Shown: positions 16,975 to 62,003 of the stretch, one piece after another
Position numbering within the stretch: position 1 is the first letter of the stretch
Layout of the letters: each line of letters starts with the position of its first letter
NCBI GenBank assembly: GCA_964625065.1
Contig: CAZUZL010000003.1
Coordinates: 1,730-65,729, forward strand
Origin: an uncultured Candidatus Saccharibacteria bacterium
Lineage (GTDB): Bacteria > Patescibacteriota > Minisyncoccia > Phycocordibacterales > UBA9973
DNA length: 64,000 nucleotides
Reading direction: 5' to 3'
Position numbers and translations under genes: made by a program
The notes under the pieces: generated by a model
What the model saw: only the letters and a program-made list of their open reading frames with translations
Told to the model about the DNA's origin: nothing
Database searches by the model: none

Positions 16975-17022
16975 TTAATCTCCTCCTTGTGGAGGAGGAG
17001 TCCCCGCAGGGGGAGGTGGTGA
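16975..17022. repeat. GC-rich double-hairpin mini-element, family B copy 1
   Basis: TTAATCTCCTCCTTGTGGAGGAGGAGTCCCCGCAGGGGGAGGTGGTGA. A second copy is at 50347-50394 with about 85% identity. Confidence 0.6.
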
Positions 17023-18647: not shown

Positions 18648-19649
18648 ATGAAAAAGTTTACCAAAACCTACAAACAAATAGTAAATATAGAAAACATATT
18701 TTCTGCGTGGAAAAGTTTTGTCAAAGATAAATCTAAAAAACCAGATGTAATAATGTTCGGCAGTAAAATGATGGACAATGTTTTTGACCTGTATACTGAT
18801 TTGGTAAATAAAAATTATATTCATTCTAAATATAGTCATTTTAAAATAAACGACCCAAAACCCCGCGACATACACAAAGCATCTGTCCGGGACAGGGTAC
18901 TGCACCACTTGTTATATAACGAATTATATCCGTTCTTTGACACTATTTTTATATACGATTCGTATTCGTGTCGTTTCGGAAAAGGTACACACAAAGGCAT
19001 ACAAAGGTTTCGTAGTTTTGTACTAAAAGTTAGTAAAAATAAAACCAAACAGTGCTTTGTATTAAAATGCGATATACGCAAATTCTTTGCAAACATAGAC
19101 CACGCTATATTAAAAAGTATTTTAGAAAAATATATAAATGATGTTGATATTCGGAATCTGTTGTGCAGTATAGTAGACAGTTTTAAAACTAACCAAACTC
19201 CACATAAAAAATCAAGCAGTGAAATAGGTTTACCTTTAGGTAACCTGACTTCACAACTACTGGTAAACATATACATGAACGAATTTGACCAGTTTATAAA
19301 GAGGGAGTTAAAAATACAGCATTACATACGTTACGCTGACGACTTTGTTATTGTTGCAGATACTAAACAGTATTTAGAAAATATATTACCAAAGTTAGAA
19401 AGCTTTCTTATGCAAAATCTAAAACTACAATTACACCCTGATAAGGTTTACATTAAAACTATTTATTCCGGGGTAGATTTCCTTGGGTGGGTAGAATTTG
19501 GTGGGCATAGAGTGTTACGAACTAGTACAAAACACAGAATGTTTAGAAAAATAAAAAATAGTAAAAACATCGAACAAACAAAGACTTCGTACATGGGTAT
19601 GCTGGCCTGGGGTAATGCGAAGAAAATCAGTAGTATTCTTGGTTTTTAA
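18648..19649 (+). CDS. DGR reverse transcriptase
   Basis: RT motifs 1-7: PRDIHKASVRDRVLHHLL, LPLGNLTSQLLVNIYMNEFD (the DGR-type [I/L]GxxxSQ), and RYADDFVIV (YADD catalytic box). About 333 aa with no maturase or endonuclease domain. Confidence 0.9.
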   Translation: MKKFTKTYKQIVNIENIFSAWKSFVKDKSKKPDVIMFGSKMMDNVFDLYTDLVNKNYIHSKYSHFKINDPKPRDIHKASVRDRVLHHLLYNELYPFFDTIFIYDSYSCRFGKGTHKGIQRFRSFVLKVSKNKTKQCFVLKCDIRKFFANIDHAILKSILEKYINDVDIRNLLCSIVDSFKTNQTPHKKSSSEIGLPLGNLTSQLLVNIYMNEFDQFIKRELKIQHYIRYADDFVIVADTKQYLENILPKLESFLMQNLKLQLHPDKVYIKTIYSGVDFLGWVEFGGHRVLRTSTKHRMFRKIKNSKNIEQTKTSYMGMLAWGNAKKISSILGF

Positions 19650-19688
19650 AGTTGAGTTTGATAAAATAAAGATATAAATTTAATATAT

Positions 19689-20078
19689 ATGAAAGATTTT
19701 GATGTATGGAATAAAGAGAAAAAATACATAGAAAACAAGGTTGTTAATCGAGACCTTTTCTTCTATCCTCGTGAAATATGGTGGTGTTCCGCTGGACTTA
19801 ATATTGGAGTTGAATCAGATGGAAAGAATGAAAATTTCGAAAGACCAATGCTAATAATTAAAAAATTCAATGCCGATATGGTATGGGTGTTACCACTTAC
19901 TACAAAAGAAAAACAAAATAAATACCACTATAAATTAGAACATGAAACAATAAAGTCTTGGGTAATACTTTCTCAAATAAAAACAATAAGCACTAAAAGA
20001 CTATTGCGTAAAATTGGTTCTATTTCTGAATTTGATTTTAAGGAAGTTATTAAAAGAGTAAAAAATACATTATTATAA
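19689..20078 (+). CDS. MazF/PemK/Kid-family endoribonuclease toxin-like protein; no obvious antitoxin gene
   Basis: REIWWCSAGLNIGVESDGK..ERPMLIIKKF, VWVLPLTTK, SWVILSQIKTISTKRL and IGSISEFDFKEVIKRV align with the PemK/MazF fold motifs. Confidence 0.65.
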   Translation: MKDFDVWNKEKKYIENKVVNRDLFFYPREIWWCSAGLNIGVESDGKNENFERPMLIIKKFNADMVWVLPLTTKEKQNKYHYKLEHETIKSWVILSQIKTISTKRLLRKIGSISEFDFKEVIKRVKNTLL

Positions 20079-29949: not shown

Positions 29950-30140
29950 TGTTTAAGTACAAGTTATAAACGGCCTTTTATAAGGGCATCACCGTTTAGT
30001 CCTGTATAAAAGGGCAGACTTTGGGAAGAACCGGCAACGGCGTAGAACCCATTAATTAAGAAGTAACTAAGGTGGTACCACGAGTAGAAACTCGTCCTTG
30101 GAAGGCAACATTTGTTGTTTTCTGTGGACGAGTTTTTAAT
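29950..30140 (+). promoter_or_regulatory. Candidate T-box-like leader of ileS
   Basis: AAGGTGGTACCACGAG resembles the T-box AGGGTGGNACCGCG. A downstream hairpin (AAACTCGTCC...GGACGAGTTTTT) has a 5' arm that could instead pair with the ACGAGT of the T-box-like segment. Confidence 0.35.
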
Positions 30141-30150
30141 TTTTAAATAT

Positions 30151-33100
30151 ATGCAAAATACAAATAATCAAGAAAATTTAAATAAATCAGCAATATCATT
30201 TCGTGAAGAAGCGGTTTTAGAATTCTGGAAAGAAAATAATATTTTCAATAAGACTTTAGAAAAACCCACTGACGCAGGTGAATACGTTTTCTACGAAGGC
30301 CCACCAACTGCTAATGGTAAACCTGGTATACACCACCTTGAAGCGCGTTCGTTTAAGGACATTATTCCACGTTACAAAACTATGCGCGGGTACCATGTTA
30401 GTCGTAAGGGTGGCTGGGACACACACGGTCTACCAGTAGAACTACAAGTAGAAAAAATGCTTGGTTTAAAATCTAAAAAAGAAATAGAAGAATATGGCAT
30501 AGAGGCATTTAATAAAAAGTGTAAAGAAAGTGTATGGGACTATCTAGACATGTGGAACAGTTTTACTGCACGCATGGGCTACTGGGTAGACATGCAACGC
30601 CCGTATGTTACATACCAAAACAGTTACATCGAAGCCCTATGGGGTGTAGTTGGCCGTGCCAACGAACGTGGTTATTTGTATAAAGACTTCAAGGTTCTAC
30701 CTTGGTGTACACGTTGTGGCACAGCACTGTCTTCACACGAACTAAACCAGCCTGGTGCGTATAAAGATGTGAAGGATCTGTCTGTTTACGTAAAGTTTAA
30801 AATTGTTGGTGTAGAAAACGGGTACTTCGTGGCATGGACTACAACACCATGGACACTACCTGGTAACGTTGCTCTTGCAGTTGGTGCAGATATAGATTAT
30901 GTAGAGGCTAAGAAAGACAATGAAGTGCTTGTGGTTGCCAAAGAAAGAATTTCAGTATTAGGTGAAGGTTACGAAATAATAGCCGAACACAAGGGTAGTG
31001 AAATGGTTGATATGCAATACGAACCACTATACCCATACTTGTCTGAAATCTACCAGCAAACAGCAAACAGCTCAAACTTTGTAAATGCTTTTAAAGTTTA
31101 CGCAGCAGACTTTGTTACTACTACAGACGGTACAGGTATAGTACACACTGCTGTTATGTATGGTGCCGACGACTTTGACTTAGGTACAAAATACGAACTA
31201 CCAAAGTTCCACACTGTAAACGAAGAAGGTAAATTTATTTCAGGTACTGGTTTCCTTGAGGGTAGATATGTTAAAGAAGTAGACGACAAGGGTAAACCCA
31301 CATTGGCAGTGGATATAATAGACGAACTAACTGCACGTGGTTTGTTGTTTAAAAAAGAAAACCACATGCACAGTTACCCACACTGTTGGCGTTGCGACAC
31401 ACCACTACTGTACTACGCACGTTCGTCTTGGTATTTCCGTATGTCTGCATTACGCCAGCAACTATTAGATGCAAATGAAAACATAAATTGGGAACCAGAC
31501 CATATAAAGGAAGGTCGTTTTGGCGAATGGCTAGACGGTATACGCGACTGGGCACTGTCACGCGACAGGTACTGGGGTACACCACTACCAATATGGCAAA
31601 AGTCTGACGGTGGTTATGTTGTTGTCGATTCGTTAGATAAATTAAAAAAACATACACAGACTTCTGGTAATAAATACTATGTTATGCGCCATGGTTTAAC
31701 ACACCACAACGTTGCCGGTACTTGGTCTTGTAATGTAGATAGTAAAGACGGTTTGAATGACACAGGTATAGAACAAGTTAAACAGTCTGCGTCAGCACAT
31801 ACAGATAAAAAAATAGACCTTATAATAGCGTCACCGTTTTACCGTACATTAGAAACTGCAAAAATTGCAGCTGGTGTTTTAGGTCTAAATGAATCTGACA
31901 TTGTTACCGACGCACGTTTAGGTGAATGGAATGTAGGTAGCGAATTTGACGGTAAACTAATAGAAGACTATTTTAAAGTTCGTAACGCCCAGGCTGATAG
32001 ATATAACTTTAAAACAGCCGGTGGTGAATCCTATGCCGACGTATTAGTACGTGCAGGTGCATTTATGTACGATATTGAAAATAAATACAAAGGTAAAAAT
32101 ATATTAATTGTTTCCCATGGTGCACCGACACGTGCCATAGAACTAGTTACTGCAGGGTACACATTAGACACATTGTTCGACGTAACACGAAGTTACAAAA
32201 ACTTTGATAATGCAGAAATACGCAAAGTAAACTTTGTACCACTTCCGCATAATGAAAACTTTGAACTAGATTTCCATAAACCATTTATAGACAATGTAGA
32301 ACTAGTAGATGAATCCGGAAACAAAATGGTTCGAACAAAAGAAGTTATGGACGTATGGTTCGACTCTGGGTCTATGCCATATGCCCAGTCACACAAACTA
32401 GGTGAAGTTATGGATTTTAATCCAGCTCCAGCCGACTACATTTCTGAAGCTATAGACCAAACACGTGGTTGGTTCTATACATTGCATGCAGTGTCTAATA
32501 TGCTGTCTGACGCGCCACGTAATGCATATAAAAATGTAATTTGTTTGGGCCATATACTAGACGCCCAAGGTTTAAAAATGTCTAAGTCAAAAGGTAACGT
32601 AGTAGACCCATGGACCATGTTCGACAAATACGGAGCCGACACAATACGCCTATGGATGTACAGTGTAAACCAACCAGGCGACAGTAAAAACTTCGACGAA
32701 AAAACCGTAGCTGAATTGCACGGTAAAGTGTTTACACTGCTAGATAACTGTTACAAGTTGTTTGAACTATATAAAGACAAAGACTATGTAATAGGTAACA
32801 CCAGTGTAAATGTACTAGACCAGTGGGTAGTTGCACGACTAAACCAACTAATTTCAGATTCTACAAAGTCTTTGGACGAATATAATATATTTAACCCAGT
32901 GCGTGCACTACGCGAATTTATTGCAGACTTTTCTACTTGGTATATACGTCGTTCACGCGACAGGTTCAAGTCAGACGATGTAGTTGTTTATGGTCCAGCC
33001 TTAGCAACTACACATTATGTATTTACCGAATTAGCAAAATTCATGGCTCCATTCGCGCCGTTCTATGCAGAAGATTTGTGGCAGAAAATACGCGACGAAA

Positions 33101-33624
33101 AAGATACTGTCTCCGTACATTTAGCTAACTGGCCGGATTCTCCCCTTGATAAGGGGGAGCTAGAGGGGGTTTTAGAAAACATGCAAAAAATCCGCGACAT
33201 TTGTACCGAAGGTAATGCTTTGCGTAAAAAGTCTACAATACCAGTACGCCAGCCATTGTTGTCTATAACAGTTGTAAATCAAAATTTAGATAATGAATAT
33301 GAAGAAATAATAAAAGACGAACTTAATATCAAACAAGTTTTTTATGGCGCTGAATTTATATTAGACACTGACATAACACCAGAACTAAAAACTGAAGGTA
33401 ACTACCGCGAACTTGTTCGTGCATTACAAGACATGCGTAAAGACATGGGCCTAACACCCGACGAAATAGTTAGTCTAAAAATTTCTGAAAATGCAAAAGA
33501 CCTAATAGTAAAATTTGAAACAGATTTGAAAAAAACTGTTGGCGTAAATACCATTGTATTTACAGACGGGGAAGTGGATACAGCAATAGGCACAGAAATG
33601 TATAAAGTAAGTATAGAAAAATAG
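30151..33624 (+). CDS. ileS: Isoleucine--tRNA ligase carrying an inserted histidine-phosphatase (PGM-like) domain
   Basis: HIGH (GIHHL), CP1 editing region, WALSRDRYWGTPLPIW, KMSKS (KMSKSKGN). Between PIWQKSDGGYVVVD and DVWFDSGS lie about 230 extra residues with RHG...SHG motifs. Confidence 0.9.
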   Translation: MQNTNNQENLNKSAISFREEAVLEFWKENNIFNKTLEKPTDAGEYVFYEGPPTANGKPGIHHLEARSFKDIIPRYKTMRGYHVSRKGGWDTHGLPVELQVEKMLGLKSKKEIEEYGIEAFNKKCKESVWDYLDMWNSFTARMGYWVDMQRPYVTYQNSYIEALWGVVGRANERGYLYKDFKVLPWCTRCGTALSSHELNQPGAYKDVKDLSVYVKFKIVGVENGYFVAWTTTPWTLPGNVALAVGADIDYVEAKKDNEVLVVAKERISVLGEGYEIIAEHKGSEMVDMQYEPLYPYLSEIYQQTANSSNFVNAFKVYAADFVTTTDGTGIVHTAVMYGADDFDLGTKYELPKFHTVNEEGKFISGTGFLEGRYVKEVDDKGKPTLAVDIIDELTARGLLFKKENHMHSYPHCWRCDTPLLYYARSSWYFRMSALRQQLLDANENINWEPDHIKEGRFGEWLDGIRDWALSRDRYWGTPLPIWQKSDGGYVVVDSLDKLKKHTQTSGNKYYVMRHGLTHHNVAGTWSCNVDSKDGLNDTGIEQVKQSASAHTDKKIDLIIASPFYRTLETAKIAAGVLGLNESDIVTDARLGEWNVGSEFDGKLIEDYFKVRNAQADRYNFKTAGGESYADVLVRAGAFMYDIENKYKGKNILIVSHGAPTRAIELVTAGYTLDTLFDVTRSYKNFDNAEIRKVNFVPLPHNENFELDFHKPFIDNVELVDESGNKMVRTKEVMDVWFDSGSMPYAQSHKLGEVMDFNPAPADYISEAIDQTRGWFYTLHAVSNMLSDAPRNAYKNVICLGHILDAQGLKMSKSKGNVVDPWTMFDKYGADTIRLWMYSVNQPGDSKNFDEKTVAELHGKVFTLLDNCYKLFELYKDKDYVIGNTSVNVLDQWVVARLNQLISDSTKSLDEYNIFNPVRALREFIADFSTWYIRRSRDRFKSDDVVVYGPALATTHYVFTELAKFMAPFAPFYAEDLWQKIRDEKDTVSVHLANWPDSPLDKGELEGVLENMQKIRDICTEGNALRKKSTIPVRQPLLSITVVNQNLDNEYEEIIKDELNIKQVFYGAEFILDTDITPELKTEGNYRELVRALQDMRKDMGLTPDEIVSLKISENAKDLIVKFETDLKKTVGVNTIVFTDGEVDTAIGTEMYKVSIEK
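33136..33172 (+). repeat. GC-rich palindromic mini-element (family A, inverted) in frame inside ileS
   Basis: TCCCCTTGATAAGGGGGAGCTAGAGGGGG is the reverse complement of the family A core CCTCCCCCTTATCAAGGGGAGG. It encodes SPLDKGELEG. Confidence 0.55.
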
Positions 33625-48111: not shown

Positions 48112-50304
48112 TTATAGCATATCTGCATTATTCGATATAATATTTTGGCCTGCTTCGTCACGCATAACCCCACCTTCTAATACGTCACGTGGCTTGGCTC
48201 CGTTACCTGGGCCTACTACACCGCGTTCCTCTAGTATATCTATCAGTCGGGCAGCACGTGCATAACCGATACCCAGTTTACGTTGTAGGAAAGAAGTCGA
48301 CGCTTTACGTGTTTCGATAACAATCTGACGAGCTTGTTCATATAGGTCGTCGTCCTCGCTGTTTTTGTCGCCGTCTAGTGTAGAGTCAAATATGGTTTTA
48401 TCCATAGTTGGTGTACCCGACAGTTCTATTGTGTCTTGAAGTTCCTCGCGGTATGCATCCTTCAGATATGCAACAACTTTTTTAACTTCTTGTTCAGATA
48501 TGTATGCCGACTGTAAGCGGGAAGGTTGGCCCTCGCCACCTGAATACAGCATGTCACCTTGGCCAAGAAGTTTTTCAGCACCAGATGCGTCTAATATAGT
48601 ACGCGAATCCATCTGTGTCGGTACGCGTAGTGCAATACGTGTAGGTACGTTCGCCTTGATCAACCCTGTTATAACTTGCACCTCAGGGCGTTGTGTAGAC
48701 AGTATAAGGTGTATACCAACAGCACGCGACATCTGTGCCAGGCGTACAATGCCGGCTTCTAGTTCGCGTGGGTATGCCTGCATTATGTCGGCCAATTCGT
48801 CGATGATTATAACAATGTACGGCATCCTTTCTCCATCGTCACCCTTATTTGTTTTACCGCCAGAAATGTTTGCGTGGTAACTTTCAATGTCACGTACACT
48901 TTCAGCTTGTAGTAGGTCGTAACGTCGATCCATTTCCTTTGCTGCCCATTTAAGTGCCAGTATGGCTTTCTTAGCATCAGTAATAACAGGTGTTAGTAGA
49001 TGGGGTATGTTGTTGTATAGAGTTAGTTCAACACGTTTAGGGTCCACAAATATCATCTTTAGGTCTTCAGGTCCGTTGCGGTATATCAACGAGTTGATAA
49101 TGGCGTGTATAGTTACAGACTTACCAGACCCTGTTGTACCGGCTATCAATGCATGTGGTGCCTTGGCCAAGTTTACAAAGTGTGGTCGTCCAGCAACGTC
49201 ACGGCCCAGTGCTACGGTCAGTGGTTTAGATGCGTTTTTAAATCTCTCATCGGCCATAAGTGAACCCAGTCCAACAGTTGCTTTGGTCTTGTTTGGTATT
49301 TCAATACCTACCAACGACTTGCCTGGTATTGGTGCTTCGATACGAACAGGGTGGGCAGCCAGTGCCAGTGCTAGGTCGGACTGTAGCCCTGCAATGCGGG
49401 ACAGTTTTACACCTGCTGCTGGTTTCAATGCGTACTGTGTAAAAGTAGGTCCAGTTGTAACTTCATCCATTTCAACTTCAATACCAAAGTTCAGTAGTGT
49501 GCGTTTTATAATATTTGCATTTGCCTTCACGTCACCAACGTTTGCTTTGCCACTGTCTGGTTCTAATAGTGCTATCGGTGGGGCATCGTAGTTGTGGGTT
49601 TTGAATGGCTTTTTATTAATTACCATTTCTTCTTCGGTCGCTGTTTCTTTAGTCTTCTTTTGAATAACCTTTTCTTCCTCTTCTTGTTTTTCTGCAGAAG
49701 TTTTTATTGGTTCGGTTGGTACAGATCCATCAGTTATAGTAGGTTCGCGGTTTGGGTCGAACTCGGGTTCTTTCTTCTTAAACAAACCAGCTATGCGGGC
49801 AGTAATAGTACCAATACTTGGTCTGTAGTCGAACAGTATAAAACTTGATATCAACACCAACCCCAGCATTATAATAACTGCAACTGTGGTATCAAACAGC
49901 GCAACAAAAGGTAACGCAATCCAGTGGCCAAAAAGCCCACCTATGCGCATAGTTGCACCACCGAAAATCTCCATCGTACCTAATGCAGATAGTAGCAACA
50001 CACCGCCCGAAATGGTGTGTAGTAGTGGTAGTTCAGGTATGGTCGAACGTATATACGACACACCCAACATGGCAGAAACTATAGGCAACAAATAGTATCC
50101 AAACCCAAACAAACTTGAAAATGCACGGAATATAACGTCGCCCGCAACACCTGCCTTGCCCAATGCCGCCAGCACTAAAAGTAAACAAACTATAAAGTAA
50201 ATTACAGCGTATATACCATGCCGTGTAGCATCCTTCAGACGTGAAGTTTTCTCTGTATCCTCGGTCTCTTTTTTCGGGTTATTTTTCTTAGTTTCTTTTG
50301 CCAT
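48112..50304 (-). CDS. ftsK: DNA translocase FtsK
   Basis: N-terminal TM helices, Walker A GTTGSGKSV, and a C-terminal winged-helix gamma domain. Confidence 0.9.
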   Translation of the reverse strand: MAKETKKNNPKKETEDTEKTSRLKDATRHGIYAVIYFIVCLLLVLAALGKAGVAGDVIFRAFSSLFGFGYYLLPIVSAMLGVSYIRSTIPELPLLHTISGGVLLLSALGTMEIFGGATMRIGGLFGHWIALPFVALFDTTVAVIIMLGLVLISSFILFDYRPSIGTITARIAGLFKKKEPEFDPNREPTITDGSVPTEPIKTSAEKQEEEEKVIQKKTKETATEEEMVINKKPFKTHNYDAPPIALLEPDSGKANVGDVKANANIIKRTLLNFGIEVEMDEVTTGPTFTQYALKPAAGVKLSRIAGLQSDLALALAAHPVRIEAPIPGKSLVGIEIPNKTKATVGLGSLMADERFKNASKPLTVALGRDVAGRPHFVNLAKAPHALIAGTTGSGKSVTIHAIINSLIYRNGPEDLKMIFVDPKRVELTLYNNIPHLLTPVITDAKKAILALKWAAKEMDRRYDLLQAESVRDIESYHANISGGKTNKGDDGERMPYIVIIIDELADIMQAYPRELEAGIVRLAQMSRAVGIHLILSTQRPEVQVITGLIKANVPTRIALRVPTQMDSRTILDASGAEKLLGQGDMLYSGGEGQPSRLQSAYISEQEVKKVVAYLKDAYREELQDTIELSGTPTMDKTIFDSTLDGDKNSEDDDLYEQARQIVIETRKASTSFLQRKLGIGYARAARLIDILEERGVVGPGNGAKPRDVLEGGVMRDEAGQNIISNNADML

Positions 50305-50346
50305 TATCTACACATTTTAACAAAAAAACCTTTGTAAACCAAGGAA

Positions 50347-50394
50347 TTAATCTCCTCCTTGTTGAGGAGGAGTGGCCGTAGGCCGAGGTGGTGA
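50347..50394. repeat. GC-rich double-hairpin mini-element, family B copy 2
   Basis: TTAATCTCCTCCTTGTTGAGGAGGAGTGGCCGTAGGCCGAGGTGGTGA; compare the copy at 16975-17022. Confidence 0.6.
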
Positions 50395-54934: not shown

Positions 54935-54962
54935 CAGGGGCTGAGTCCCTGATTTATCCACA
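54935..54962. repeat. REP-like element: hairpin plus a perfect DnaA-box 9-mer (copy 0)
   Basis: CAGGGGCTGAGTCCCTG then TTATCCACA (54954-54962). Confidence 0.55.
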
Positions 54963-55065
54963 GGTGATTGCCCCAGCAATTGTGTCGCGTAATGTCGATT
55001 GAAACGCGACCCACATGTTTTATCAAAACAGGTGCAAAATTTATAGTTTGTGCTATACTGCCAAA

Positions 55066-55578
55066 ATGGAAAAAATAAAAAATATTATACAGACCAATAA
55101 GAAAAATATCCTTATTGCTATTGGTTTTATCGTTGTTATCATTATATGTGTTATTGCTTTTAGTAAACATAAACCACGTCCGGTTGCACCTGTTGCACCA
55201 GTAACCACTGACGAAACAGTGTTAGATGGTAACACTCCAGAAACTAATGTAAAACCTGTTAAAAAGGCTACTGCAGGTGTTTCTGCTGTATCTATATCAT
55301 ACGAACAAGCTTTGGTTACATATAAAGACTCTCGCATACAGCTTGGTTCTACAGATGCTTGTGCTGCAACACCACGAACTTCAACCTTTAAAAACGGCAC
55401 TACTATAATGGTAGACAATCGCGGTCCAGTAGTACGTACAGTAAAAGTAGGAAGTACATACACTATAAATGCATACGACTTTAAACTTATAACACTTTCA
55501 AGTACAAACCTACCTGAAACTGTATATGTAGACTGTAACAACCAACAAAACGTAGCTACAATACTTATTCAGAAATAA
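55066..55578 (+). CDS. Hypothetical membrane-anchored protein
   Basis: TM helix then a beta-rich domain. ATG at 55066. Confidence 0.45.
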   Translation: MEKIKNIIQTNKKNILIAIGFIVVIIICVIAFSKHKPRPVAPVAPVTTDETVLDGNTPETNVKPVKKATAGVSAVSISYEQALVTYKDSRIQLGSTDACAATPRTSTFKNGTTIMVDNRGPVVRTVKVGSTYTINAYDFKLITLSSTNLPETVYVDCNNQQNVATILIQK

Positions 55579-55582
55579 CATC

Positions 55583-55610
55583 TGTGGATAACTTAGGGGT
55601 CCAACCCCTG
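55583..55610. repeat. REP-like element: DnaA-box 9-mer plus hairpin (copy 1)
   Basis: TGTGGATAA then AGGGGT-CCA-ACCCCT. Confidence 0.55.
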
Positions 55611-55677
55611 TAAAATATAAAAATCCTTATACATTAAGGGTTTTTATATTTTGTATTTCTCATACACTCATAAAATC

Positions 55678-55686
55678 TGTGGATAA
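55678..55686. repeat. Isolated perfect DnaA-box 9-mer (copy 2)
   Basis: TGTGGATAA. Confidence 0.45.
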
Positions 55687-55915
55687 CTAGGCGATTCTGC
55701 ATAATTATAATTATTAGACAATACTGTGTTATAATAAATATATGAAATTTAAAGCCAGTGCACTAGCTAAAATAATCGGTTTCTCGGCTATTATCGGCGT
55801 GGCTCTTGTTACTTTGTATTATATATCAGAACAGCGAGGCGGAACCTTGGCCACACTATTCGACGCACCCACCGAAACCGCTTCTGGCAATACATCTACT
55901 AAAAAATAACCAACC

Positions 55916-55943
55916 TGTGGATAACCCAGGTGTTCGACACCCG
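55916..55943. repeat. REP-like element: DnaA-box 9-mer plus hairpin (copy 3)
   Basis: TGTGGATAA-CCCAGGTGTTCGACACCCGG. Confidence 0.55.
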
Positions 55944-56027
55944 GAAAATTATTTGAGAAAAAGCAGTGAAAATTTACAATAGAATTTCCAAGGAGAGGGT
56001 AATTTATCGACAAAATATTCGCGAGTG

Positions 56028-56036
56028 TTATCCACA
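56028..56036. repeat. Isolated perfect DnaA-box 9-mer, reverse orientation (copy 4)
   Basis: TTATCCACA. Confidence 0.45.
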
Positions 56037-56244
56037 AGATAATTTTAATCAGGTTGCATCTTTTGCCCCATTTTTATATACTGAAAGAGTAGTCGATTGG
56101 CACATTTTTGGTATCTACTATATATTGACATAATCGATTAATAGTGTATACTAGTGATGTGCTTGTGGGCGAAAGCCTTGTTCGGACAAGAGATCTCTAA
56201 GCCGAAGCCAAGCACAATAAAGAATGCCCCTCACGGGGTATTTT

Positions 56245-56754
56245 TTATTTTCTGAGTCTCATTACACTCCAGAATATGATATTTCCAGCGCCAGTTTTTT
56301 TTAATACTACTTTAACTTTGACATCATTATTCCTTCCTACTGTAGCGACAACTGTCCAATATTCCACTTCTTTTTTTGGTCTTTTACTATTGCGTCCAAT
56401 TGGCTCAATCTTTTTCTCATATTCAAATATTGAAGTACATTGCTTTAGCACGGGTATAACTAATGGAAAAAGCTTTATTTTATGTAGAATGTCCGCAACT
56501 GTTCTTGCTTCGCCTCCACCATGATATTTGAAGTGATGGAATCCCTGAGCATTAAAAAATACGTCAGCATTAAGACAAGGACAATAAACCTTACCGATAC
56601 AATCGTATAGAGTACGACATTGATCCAAAGTCTTCTTGCAATGATTTCTCATTTGTTCAGGGGTAAATTTTTGATTCATATATAATCTAACTTTACCACC
56701 ACTTAATAAAAAGTCCACCTTTAATAGTGCAGCGGGGTGGTACTTTAGCAACAT
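56245..56754 (-). CDS. Hypothetical protein (Cys-rich central segment); its start codon abuts a REP/DnaA-box element
   Basis: MLLKYHPAALLKVDFL... The ATG sits immediately adjacent to TTATCCACA on the minus strand. The longer track ORF overlaps the transposase gene. Confidence 0.45.
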   Translation of the reverse strand: MLLKYHPAALLKVDFLLSGGKVRLYMNQKFTPEQMRNHCKKTLDQCRTLYDCIGKVYCPCLNADVFFNAQGFHHFKYHGGGEARTVADILHKIKLFPLVIPVLKQCTSIFEYEKKIEPIGRNSKRPKKEVEYWTVVATVGRNNDVKVKVVLKKTGAGNIIFWSVMRLRK

Positions 56755-56814
56755 TGTGGATAACCCAGGTGTTCGACACCTGGAAAAATAAAGATAAAGA
56801 TTTATAATTAAAAT

Positions 56815-57486
56815 ATGAGAAAACATCCATTGGTAACGGGCGAGGTCTATCATATCTATAATAGGGGCGTAGATAAAAGAGATGTCTTTATGAGTAAAGA
56901 TGATCTTGAACGTTTTGTATTGAGTGTGAAAGAGTTCAATAGAATAAAACCAACAGGAAGTATTCGCGATAAGTATGTGTATAACCCAGGTGCTGAACAC
57001 CTGGGAATAGCGGGAGATGACAATAATCCTCTGGTTTCAATTGTTTGCTATAGTTTTTTACCAAATCATTTTCATTTTATTGTAAAACAGGAAGTTGACG
57101 GTGGTGTATCTGAATTTTTTAAACGTTTATTGGGTGGGTATACTAACTATTTTAATAAAATTTATGAGCGAAGCGGGGTTCTATTTCAAGGACCATTTAA
57201 ATCCCATGTTATTGATAGTGATCAATATTTAATAAAAATACGCCCATATGGAAATATGAATGACCTAGTTCATGATATACCTGAAGATAAAAGGCACTTG
57301 GTTAAAACCAGTAGTGCAGAATATGACTCAATGAATTTTGATATAGTTTCCAAAAAAGAAGCTGAAGAATTATTAAGATTTTACAACGGTAATGAGAATT
57401 TTAAAAAAGAGTGTCTTGAAATTATAAATATAATACGTGAAGAAAGAGGGAGGACTACTTTATCAGCGGAAGATTTATTGCCATAG
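56815..57486 (+). CDS. Y1 (HUH) tyrosine transposase, IS200/IS605 TnpA or REP-associated (RAYT)-like
   Basis: YHIYNRGVDKRDVF N-terminal motif, HUH LPNHFHFIV, and C-terminal GVLFQGPFKSHVIDSDQYLIKIRPY (catalytic-Tyr helix region). Confidence 0.75.
   Translation: MRKHPLVTGEVYHIYNRGVDKRDVFMSKDDLERFVLSVKEFNRIKPTGSIRDKYVYNPGAEHLGIAGDDNNPLVSIVCYSFLPNHFHFIVKQEVDGGVSEFFKRLLGGYTNYFNKIYERSGVLFQGPFKSHVIDSDQYLIKIRPYGNMNDLVHDIPEDKRHLVKTSSAEYDSMNFDIVSKKEAEELLRFYNGNENFKKECLEIINIIREERGRTTLSAEDLLP
56976..57005. repeat. REP-like element inside the transposase coding sequence (copy 6; box degenerate by 1 nt)
   Basis: TGTGTATAA-CCCAGGTGCTGAACACCTGGG. Confidence 0.5.
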
Positions 57487-57598
57487 TCAATTTCCCAGGT
57501 GCTGAACACCTGGGTTATCCACAGGTGGGGTGGAGTATTATGGACATGTTGCTAAATTAATTAGATAATATTTTTATAATAGAATAAATATATTAAAT

Positions 57599-61671: not shown

Positions 61672-61714
61672 CCTGTGGATAACCCAGACGTCCAACGTCT
61701 GGGTTATCCACAGG
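61672..61714. repeat. Perfect palindrome: two opposed DnaA-box 9-mers flanking a hairpin (REP-like copy 8)
   Basis: CCTGTGGATAACCCAGACG-TCCAA-CGTCTGGGTTATCCACAGG. Confidence 0.6.
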
Positions 61715-61715
61715 G

Positions 61716-62003
61716 TTGCGGGGGATGGGGTTTTGTGTTAATGTGTGTTGGTAACGCTAAAGACAGTAGGCCGGGGAGAGAGATCTGCCCACAAGCCCTA
61801 CCGAGGTACAAATACTAGATTATTGCGCATATATGCCCCATAGGGGCCATGTATAGGCAAAAGATATAGAATAGTCCTATTTTGCATTACACCTTTAGAA
61901 ATAAGGGTTTTAGGTCGTTATTTATTAAAAATACTCCTGAAATTAAAGTTGGCCGTCCTTTAATGGACACCGGCCGGCATGATTTCTGGGGAAATCAAAA
62001 ACC
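61716..62003 (+). promoter_or_regulatory. Long structured 5' leader of rplJ-rplL (candidate L10 autoregulatory leader)
   Basis: About 290 nt non-coding, GC-rich hairpins (for example GGCCGTCC...GGACACCGGCCGGC), and positioned before rplJ. Confidence 0.35.

Follow-up and report, generated by a model that had tools for sequence, protein, structure and literature searches.

A probable low-copy REPtron of Patescibacteria whose repeats carry a DnaA-box sequence

Does a tight cluster of DnaA boxes around a transposase gene belong to the replication of the chromosome or to the transposase? The question is raised by a stretch of 64,000 nucleotides from an uncultured Candidatus Saccharibacteria bacterium (the window; contig CAZUZL010000003.1 of assembly GCA_964625065.1), in which copies of the 9-mer TTATCCACA/TGTGGATAA, most of them beside a short GC-rich hairpin, lie around a gene encoding a Y1 HUH enzyme. 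The original prediction gave two readings of this arrangement: a family of repetitive extragenic palindromes (REPs) that is mobilized by a REP-associated tyrosine transposase (RAYT) and doubles as DnaA-binding sites, or a replication origin or DnaA-titration region colonized by a transposase. We conclude that the locus is most probably a small low-copy REPtron, that is, a Y1 HUH enzyme of the RAYT kind that is passed on vertically and is surrounded by REP elements of its own. Every REP is a two-part unit composed of a GC-rich perfect hairpin, of which the structure is kept and the sequence is free, and a tag that is conserved in sequence.

Repeats and a Y1 HUH enzyme in the window

The exact 9-mer occurs nine times in the 64-kb window, whereas 0.84 occurrences are expected from dinucleotide shuffles, none of 100 of which reached nine. 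Seven of the exact boxes form the main cluster (Table 1), and two more lie beyond the range first noted and together form a palindrome. The original count of at least nine boxes within 54954-57523 holds only if degenerate copies are included, such as the one-mismatch boxes at 56004 (TTATCGACA) and 56976 (TTATACACA); the exact copies in that range number seven. A GC hairpin adjoins seven of the nine box sites, which bears out the claim that the boxes are mostly fused to one. Upon a hairpin scan and folding as single-stranded DNA, three hairpins of the main cluster folded strongly (z -3 to -4.7), the strongest fold of all was the perfect 43-nt palindrome formed by the two outlying boxes (z -10.7), three hairpins were weak or imperfect, and the boxes at 55678 and 56028 had no adjoining hairpin. 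Neither an exact box nor any of these hairpin types was found in the remaining ~54 kb of the window or in the 7.3 kb of the same genome past the window end (L095, 100% identical in the overlap). The genome sample is about 71 kb, and other proteins of the window gave these 7.3 kb downstream as well as 1.8 kb upstream. The concentration of repeats and boxes is real and far beyond chance.

The protein of 223 residues encoded amid these repeats has the motifs of a Y1 enzyme. The HUH motif is N84-H85-F86-H87-F88 and the catalytic tyrosine motif is Y145-x3-N149 (Y145-VHL-N149). Residues H85, H87, Y145 and N149 are invariant in 42 family sequences, the proline of the 'NP' sequence is replaced, and the catalytic region also contains an FQ motif and a serine pair past the tyrosine helix. 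The AlphaFold model is confident (predicted local distance difference test (pLDDT) 81, predicted template modeling score (pTM) 0.81) with the exception of residues 47-68. Its best match among solved folds was 4ER8, the E. coli REP-associated transposase on a REP hairpin (E 5e-5), followed by the IS608 and ISDra2 TnpA structures, and the Y1_Tnp profile was matched by 42 of 42 family members (best E 1e-7). These matches uphold the assignment of the open reading frame (ORF) at 56815-57486 to Y1 HUH enzymes of the RAYT kind. When the profile of the whole family was searched against PDB sequences, nothing was found even at E 10, and hence the kinship to the solved Y1 enzymes is visible by fold alone.

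The catalytic domain is followed by a helical, conserved C-terminal domain of ~70 residues (150-223), for which no relatives were detectable by the PDB sequence profile search or by Foldseek with the domain model (best E 2.6). A role of this domain as a box reader resembling DnaA domain IV was considered and rejected: there was no Bac_DnaA_C or helix-turn-helix (HTH) Pfam match in the 42 members at E up to 5, the hhalign probability against E. coli DnaA domain IV was 0.3% and Foldseek gave nothing below E 2.6.

The family is large. We retrieved 755 homologues of ~219 residues with 60-78% identity, the sources of which are all Patescibacteria, Paceibacterota, Nomurabacteria or Zambryskibacteria; some carry the name RayT from their source. 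A profile search of 1.84 billion cluster representatives gave 448 clusters (50% identity) below E 1e-30 and 6672 below 1e-10.

The hairpin triad and its inheritance

One repeat copy had been noted inside the coding sequence of the enzyme. It is indeed present, and it is not peculiar to this genome, being found family-wide in about three-quarters of relatives. A GC-rich hairpin is located 158-193 nt past the start codon in 62 of 84 related loci (cited below by L numbers), in frame at codons ~55-66 and within the disordered loop of the protein. The scan gave 63 such detections, one of which (L024) was discounted as an AT-rich chance match, and the background rate in other coding sequence is 0.0135 expected hairpins per 60 nt. 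The hairpins differ greatly among loci, with 27 different 6-bp inner stems in 58 non-redundant loci, and match within a locus. Within 250 nt of the gene, a hairpin with the same 6-bp inner stem is found on the upstream side in 42 of 52 eligible loci and on the downstream side in 46 of 49. In the 16-kb loci of many relatives these three gene-proximal copies are the only ones. In a distant subclade a second in-frame copy lies ~280 nt past the first, beyond the catalytic tyrosine motif (L072, L079, L084-L086, L088 and L089; also L075, L081 and L083), and some of these loci keep only the second site.

Structure rather than sequence is what has been retained. Pairing amounts to 89% of cells over 55 distinct in-gene hairpins versus 58% in shuffles, a percentage that is partly built in because the sequences were selected as hairpins; the compensatory changes between genomes are not. 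Both sides have changed at 10 of 11 pairs, and the covariation score is 0.766 versus 0.208 (reached in 0 of 500 shuffles), with slid registers giving at most 0.12. The loop of the in-gene hairpin is oriented such that a stop codon is avoided (CCT AAG, not CCT TAG), which argues that the full-length protein is needed. That the in-gene copy co-varies with the flanking copies over 27 stem types is comparative evidence of unusual clarity for a continuing action of the enzyme on the repeats. We also observed that a single G:C pair, 6 nt on each side of the hairpin centre (alignment columns 10 and 22), is invariant in all 55 hairpins while all others co-vary; this pair may be a family-wide recognition contact.

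The gene is found in a stable setting. Relatives of at least 59% identity have the neighbourhood of the window, in the order ftsK, orf255 (255 residues), a giant PG_binding_1 protein, small ORFs, the Y1 gene, a large LCAT/immunoglobulin-like protein and rplJ-rplL, and more distant clades have conserved neighbours of their own. The conserved gene order within clades indicates that the Y1 gene is inherited vertically. Each locus retrieved has one Y1 copy and no second, and this, together with the stable neighbourhood, points to a domesticated gene rather than an insertion sequence.

The DnaA-box tag and competing explanations

The sequence-conserved tag is C(C/T)TGTGGATAAC (11-12 nt). It includes GTGG, a form of the canonical REP tetranucleotide GT[AG]G, and matches the consensus DnaA box. 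The original prediction is thus correct that the repeat's conserved arm matches a DnaA-box 9-mer exactly; the view that this is unusual needs tempering, since the box contains GT[AG]G and part of the match therefore comes from a known REP feature. GTGG is near the hairpin foot only in the palindrome at 61672-61714 (GTGG...CCAC, a double-foot layout) and is 5 nt off in the single-foot copies. Other clades have GTAG double-foot forms (L062, L069 and L073) or CGTC tags (L001 and L004).

Within this sub-clade conservation is stronger in the box than in the hairpin. L090, L091 and L093 (72-74% identity) have 7-9 exact boxes at the syntenic sites of the window, namely after the giant gene, after the orf187 homologue, before a small ORF, upstream and downstream of Y1 and upstream of rplJ, and at these orthologous sites the box is constant while the hairpin cores have been replaced (TTAGGGG-TCCAA-CCCCTAA and ATCAGGGG...). 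The in-gene copy of these three relatives is a decayed remnant, GATAAATCAGATTCTGATCG. Given that the in-gene hairpin of the window is identical to the downstream copy, a recent in-gene replacement took place in the window lineage. In the clade of at least 58% identity a 9-mer like TT[AT]TNCACA (at most 1 mismatch), located 2-22 nt off the hairpin and pointing outward from it, is present in 13 of 126 flanks, compared with 2 of 126 in the control orientation, and it varies mainly at positions 3 (A/T) and 5 (C/A/T). The E. coli DnaA-box consensus, TT[AT]TNCACA, is degenerate at the same positions (PMC6006769). The density of exact boxes in relatives is 0.019/kb in coding and 0.154/kb in intergenic sequence and 0.93/kb within 30 nt of REP hairpins, the last value representing 6 boxes versus 0.99 expected from the intergenic rate (P = 6e-4). 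The conserved boxes at syntenic sites, the oriented 9-mer and the density near hairpins together show that the whole 9-12-mer is constrained, beyond GTGG. Hairpin-free boxes also occur in relatives, often just upstream of -35-like motifs, and hence the box by itself probably serves these organisms as a site of protein binding. By this sequence evidence the REP tag probably doubles as such a site, with DnaA as the prime candidate for its reader, although we consider the case for DnaA tentative and its probability well short of even.

The mechanism that we propose is modeled on better-known enzymes. As for TnpA of IS200/IS605 and TnpA(REP), a dimer of the enzyme would bind hairpins extruded on single-stranded DNA at the replication fork and, as do the IS608, ISDra2 and E. 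coli TnpA(REP) proteins, it would cut beside the tag by use of Tyr145 and the HUH-bound metal and then rejoin the DNA. By analogy, cutting and rejoining could copy or swap hairpin cassettes at tag-marked sites and homogenize the copies around the gene. Such copying would account for the likeness of the upstream, in-gene and downstream copies within a genome and for their difference between genomes, and cassette replacement at tag-marked sites would explain the constant box and turned-over hairpin cores of this sub-clade. Because the upstream REP overlaps the -35 element of the gene's promoter, its occupancy would be expected to repress transcription of the enzyme (autoregulation).

Several results weigh against a REPtron. 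The window protein scores 17.6 bits on Pfam Y1_Tnp, for which the gathering cut-off is 23, and 16.4 bits on the NCBIfam REP_Tyr_transpos equivalog NF047646, for which the cut-off is 80. The window protein itself thus falls below both cut-offs, whereas all 42 family members match Y1_Tnp, a combination that indicates a divergent Y1 enzyme and not an equivalog of the curated proteobacterial RAYT. Copy number is also low. Classical REPs number hundreds, whereas the ~10 copies seen here all lie within 7 kb (54.9-61.7 kb) of the ~71 kb sampled, and in relatives the density outside the vicinity of the gene is 0.27 copies per 10 kb. A scan for the box plus a CCCAG-type hairpin in one genome per species of 185,579 species (the source genome not being among these) found the combination in only three genomes, at four stretches in all and with 1-3 copies per genome. 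In one of the scanned genomes two copies flank a 136-residue ORF after dnaK-dnaJ on a contig other than that of the Y1 gene, and thus the element is dispersed, though at low copy number. Hence, of the RAYT-mobilized REP family originally suggested, the RAYT-type REPtron stands, with copies that are few and local rather than a large dispersed family. Moreover, the concerted evolution of the copies could come from ordinary gene conversion, and the box-hairpin spacing (2-22 nt in wider relatives, with GTGG 5 nt from the foot in single-foot copies) is a poor fit to a rigid guide-sequence mechanism.

A different view is that the boxes serve to bind DnaA, at a chromosomal origin or a datA-like titration site in which a transposase gene lies by chance, the hairpins being incidental. 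DnaA-box clusters are found at oriC, at datA in E. coli and in the DnaA-box clusters (DBCs) of B. subtilis, and the density of perfect boxes is similar here: seven within 2.6 kb, versus 0.84 expected in the whole window, constitute a box cluster by oriC standards. The 12-mer CCTGTGGATAAC matches the extended R1 box of E. coli oriC. Close relatives (L090, L091 and L093) have kept the cluster at syntenic positions, variation among relatives is mainly at positions that DnaA tolerates, and the locus is upstream of a large ribosomal-protein operon. A local minimum of cumulative GC skew does lie near 55-57 kb, as the original prediction had asked to be examined, but no origin-type switch goes with it: the genes to either side of the locus are on the + strand, the skew stays positive from 1 to 44 kb, and where it dips locally, at 44-56 kb, there are minus-strand genes and the giant gene of odd composition. 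Downstream, rplJ-rplL and the ribosomal-protein operon are all co-directional on the + strand. In line with the earlier statement that neither dnaA nor dnaN is nearby, tblastn with E. coli DnaA found nothing in the window or in 89 related loci (~660 kb) and no DnaN-like ORF was among those checked. The syntenic relatives L001 and L004 have but one exact box each in 12.6 kb and, unlike in the known clusters, some boxes here form perfect palindromes with a hairpin and one copy is inside a coding sequence, as fits a palindromic repeat unit. The region is not a chromosomal origin, and the suggestion of an origin or titration region colonized by a transposase is not supported; taken as a whole it is quite unlikely, although the box cluster may have a datA-like titration role.

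The gene and flanking hairpins could also be an active IS200/IS605-type insertion sequence, the hairpins being its left and right ends. The ~770-bp unit has a single small Y1 gene with similar subterminal hairpins on both sides, as in IS200, the catalytic fold is shared with the IS608 and ISDra2 TnpA proteins, which are strong structural matches, and a short conserved sequence abuts the hairpin-bearing end as does the TTAC target in IS608, a placement that suggests that the box could be a cleavage or target site. We nevertheless hold this to be very improbable. The tyrosine motif is Y-x3-N, typical of class 2 (RAYT-type) enzymes, rather than the Y-x3-Q of IS200 transposases (PMC6006769), no tnpB or tnpB-like neighbour is present at the locus, and the hairpins form perfect palindromes. 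Within clades the gene has kept its place across 60-80% protein identity, and each retrieved locus has one syntenic copy, with homologues that are divergent and not near-identical. More can be said for hairpins that are terminators or operators and a box that is a promoter-upstream regulator site, gene conversion keeping these elements alike and the Y1 protein being no mover. Along the direction of transcription the order is hairpin, box, promoter in 14 of 16 cases in relatives, the -10 of the Y1 gene directly adjoins the upstream hairpin, and hairpin-free boxes are found just upstream of -35-like TTG motifs and at the conserved ftsK-orf255 site. However, transcription signals leave unexplained the in-frame hairpin kept inside this one gene over 27 stem types, the perfect box-hairpin-box palindromes and the tie of the hairpin family to a hairpin-binding HUH enzyme, the closest solved relative of which was crystallized on a REP hairpin. 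Most of the hairpins also lack a T-run, and we regard this explanation as unlikely.

Within the preferred REPtron reading a part for DnaA is speculative. DnaA on the tag might help to open the duplex, recruit the enzyme or be titrated by the cluster, possibilities that together seem to us less probable than not by a good measure. In its fullest form, which is doubtful, the REPs would have functional DnaA boxes: tag-bound DnaA would open the duplex or mark the site for hairpin extrusion, or would recruit the enzyme, and the cluster of 7-9 boxes would be a DnaA sink between the giant surface-protein gene and rplJ. DnaA recruitment would then replace the DnaA-like HTH domain found in subclass 2.1 of the Y1 enzymes.

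Individual copies, neighbouring features and known systems

The coordinates of the repeats, the Y1 gene and its promoter are collected in Table 1. Copies f (box, hairpin) and h (hairpin, box) are inverted to each other and flank the Y1 gene; with one copy inside the gene and others nearby, the layout is that of a REPtron, as originally described.

Table 1 Repeat copies, Y1 gene and promoter in the window, with strands of the individual exact boxes and folding energies as single-stranded DNA
Feature	Coordinates	Strand	Box	Hairpin	Remarks
REP copy a	54935..54964	-	TTATCCACA, 54954-54962 (+)	CAGGG-N7-CCCTG, 54935-54951, weak	Hairpin then box; directly past terminator of giant PG_binding gene; orthologous site of L090/L091 is a double-foot REP
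REP copy b	55582..55609	+	TGTGGATAA, 55583-55591 (-)	AGGGGT-CCA-ACCCCT, 55595-55609, weak	Box then hairpin; starts 4 nt past orf187 stop; its hairpin type (TTAGGGG-TCCAA-CCCCTAA) predominates in L090/L093
Solo box c	55676..55687	+	CTGTGGATAAC, exact box at 55678 (-)	none	Upstream of 55-residue ORF 55742-55909
REP copy d	55914..55944	+	55916-55924 (-)	CCAGGTG-TTCGA-CACCCGG, 55926-55944, one mismatch	Box then hairpin; near-identical direct repeat of copy f; left edge of 840-bp window-specific insert
Solo box e	56004..56036	-	TTATCCACA, 56028-56036 (+); one-mismatch TTATCGACA, 56004-56012	none at either box	
REP copy f	56753..56783	+	56755-56763 (-)	CCAGGTG-TTCGA-CACCTGG, 56765-56783, -8.0 kcal/mol, z -3.0	Box then hairpin; upstream of Y1 gene
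Promoter-like site TGGAAA-16-TATAAT	56781..56808	+			-35 overlaps 3' arm of REP f; ATG 6 nt past -10
Y1 HUH (RAYT-like) gene	56815..57486	+			223 residues
REP copy g, in frame	56974..57005	+	degenerate TGTGTATAA, 56976-56984	CCCAGGTG-CTGAA-CACCTGGG, 56985-57005, -9.6 kcal/mol	Box then hairpin; encodes YVYNPGAEHLG in disordered loop, residues ~54-66 (pLDDT below 50 for residues 47-68); hairpin identical over 21 nt to that of copy h
REP copy h	57494..57523	-	TTATCCACA, 57515-57523 (+)	57494-57514, -9.5 kcal/mol	Hairpin then box; downstream of Y1 gene
Double-foot REP i	61672..61714	.	two inverted boxes, 61674 (-) and 61704 (+)	CCTGTGGATAACCCAGACG-TCCAA-CGTCTGGGTTATCCACAGG, perfect 43-nt palindrome, -24.8 kcal/mol	Past a terminator, upstream of rplJ; orthologues in L006, L007, L090 and L093

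In relatives a -10-like hexamer is found 5-10 nt beyond the upstream hairpin. In one subclade (L017, L019, L022 and L024) the Y1 leader has a mini-ORF, ATG AAA AAT TAA/TAG, ~60-120 nt upstream of the Y1 start and a terminator-like hairpin with a T-run just before the ATG, an attenuator-like arrangement.

Between the direct copies d and f (within 55914-56790) is a segment of ~840 bp that looks like a REP-bounded insertion because it is absent from L090 and L093. It contains an RNA-like element and a minus-strand ORF of 145 residues (56245-56682). This ORF (orf145), orf187 and orf55 had no match in Pfam, NCBIfam, PHROGs or PADLOC. The best sigma-70-like promoter of the region (TTGACA-16-TATACT, 11/12 matches) is within 56125-56250 (+) and is followed by the ~95-nt structured RNA-like element and then a strong terminator (fold -39.4 kcal/mol, z -3.9). 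The element had no Rfam match and no homologue in any related locus retrieved. For this small structured RNA (56158-56250) a possible further copy upstream of rplJ was considered and rejected, only a 10-mer being shared. The non-coding DNA at 61715-62003, between REP i and rplJ, has 82-88% identity to L006, L007, L090 and L093 and is much more conserved than the adjacent intergenic DNA. It had no match in Rfam, the L10 leader included, and is a candidate for a lineage-specific rplJ leader or small RNA. Searches of the window and locus with Rfam gave only tRNA-His plus sub-threshold chance matches.

The divergent ftsK/orf255 intergenic region contains a conserved DnaA-box-like 9-mer with no REP hairpin nearby (window 50304-50312, TTATCTACA; L018 1840 and L023 1869, TTATCCACA), and the C-terminus of orf255 is winged-helix-like by eye. 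A second small hairpin family, AAT-CTCCTCCTTGTKGAGGAGGAG, has copies at 16980-17000 and 50352-50372, the latter upstream of the minus-strand ftsK start, each being followed by another short GC hairpin. Farther away, a reverse transcriptase gene at 18648-20078 (+) (Pfam RVT_1 1e-24, PADLOC RT 8e-48, DRT UG17 and UG4 models) directly precedes a PemK/MazF-type toxin gene (6e-16), and the two may form a defence-type reverse transcriptase module. An isoleucyl-tRNA synthetase-like ORF of 1170 residues at 30112-33624 (+) has an insert that by eye resembles a histidine phosphatase (RHG...SPFYRTLETA).

How does the locus compare with known systems? Quentin, Siguier, Chandler and Fichant (2018) classified the Y1 enzymes and described REPtrons, the GT[AG]G foot tag and double-foot REPs (PMC6006769). 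The REPtron/RAYT systems typified by E. coli YafM and 4ER8 (PMC2817692, PMC3333891, PMC3479197) share with our locus the Y1 HUH fold, inverted flanking hairpin repeats, further intergenic copies often beside terminators, vertical inheritance in a stable position, a GT[AG]G-type tag and hairpins that co-evolve with the gene. They differ in having hundreds of copies rather than a handful and hairpins with bulges, whereas here the hairpins are perfect, the 11-12-nt tag is the DnaA-box consensus, the hosts are Patescibacteria, the enzyme has the additional ~70-residue C-terminal domain and its score is far below the curated RAYT equivalog cut-off. In subclass 2.4 (Bertels group 4) REPs are also found in frame within tnpA(REP) (PMC6006769), and double-foot REPs and an NH[IFV]H form of the HuH motif are further likenesses. 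However, the subclass 2.4 insert is between the HuH and Tyr motifs, whereas ours lies between helix A and strand 2, ahead of the HuH motif, with a further site past the Tyr motif in one subclade. Moreover, subclass 2.4 has WQ and YIxNNP and no C-terminal tail domain, in place of the FQ and YVHLN seen here.

By inspection the catalytic motifs resemble those of subclass 2.1/TIRYT (NH[YF]H, FQ, Y[IV]HLN and a serine pair past the Tyr helix, with a similar length). Subclass 2.1 lacks REPs and has a C-terminal HTH related to DnaA domain IV (Bac_DnaA_C), and DnaA-box-like flanking repeats were looked for there and not found (PMC6006769). Our family is the reverse, with REPs and boxes and no Bac_DnaA_C/HTH similarity. 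A REP-type repeat unit that carries the site of a host DNA-binding protein has a precedent. The bacterial interspersed mosaic elements (BIMEs) and repetitive IHF-binding palindromic (RIP) elements of E. coli are REP clusters with an IHF-binding site, the candidate host protein suggested by our sequences being DnaA rather than IHF. Recruitment of IHF by REPs has been mentioned (PMC3479197).

REPtrons, GT[AG]G tags, double-foot REPs and in-frame REPs in tnpA(REP) are thus already known (PMC6006769). What is new is that a minimal RAYT-REP system of low copy number, with a REP conserved inside the gene, extends across Patescibacteria and that its tag is a perfect DnaA box in this sub-clade. Our literature search found no paper describing RAYTs in Patescibacteria or REPs carrying DnaA boxes. 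RAYT-REP systems have been characterized mainly in Proteobacteria and a few other phyla, whereas this family is large, strongly conserved and near-minimal, consisting of one gene and three matching hairpins. The box tag is notable in that the neighbouring subclass 2.1 has a DnaA-like DNA-binding domain without a known DnaA-box-like target (PMC6006769). If DnaA does not bind the tags, they are a neat but ordinary lineage-specific REP tag. If it does, REP biology would be tied to replication initiation, and the initiator would be linked directly, by mechanism, to a domesticated single-strand transposase and its repeats.

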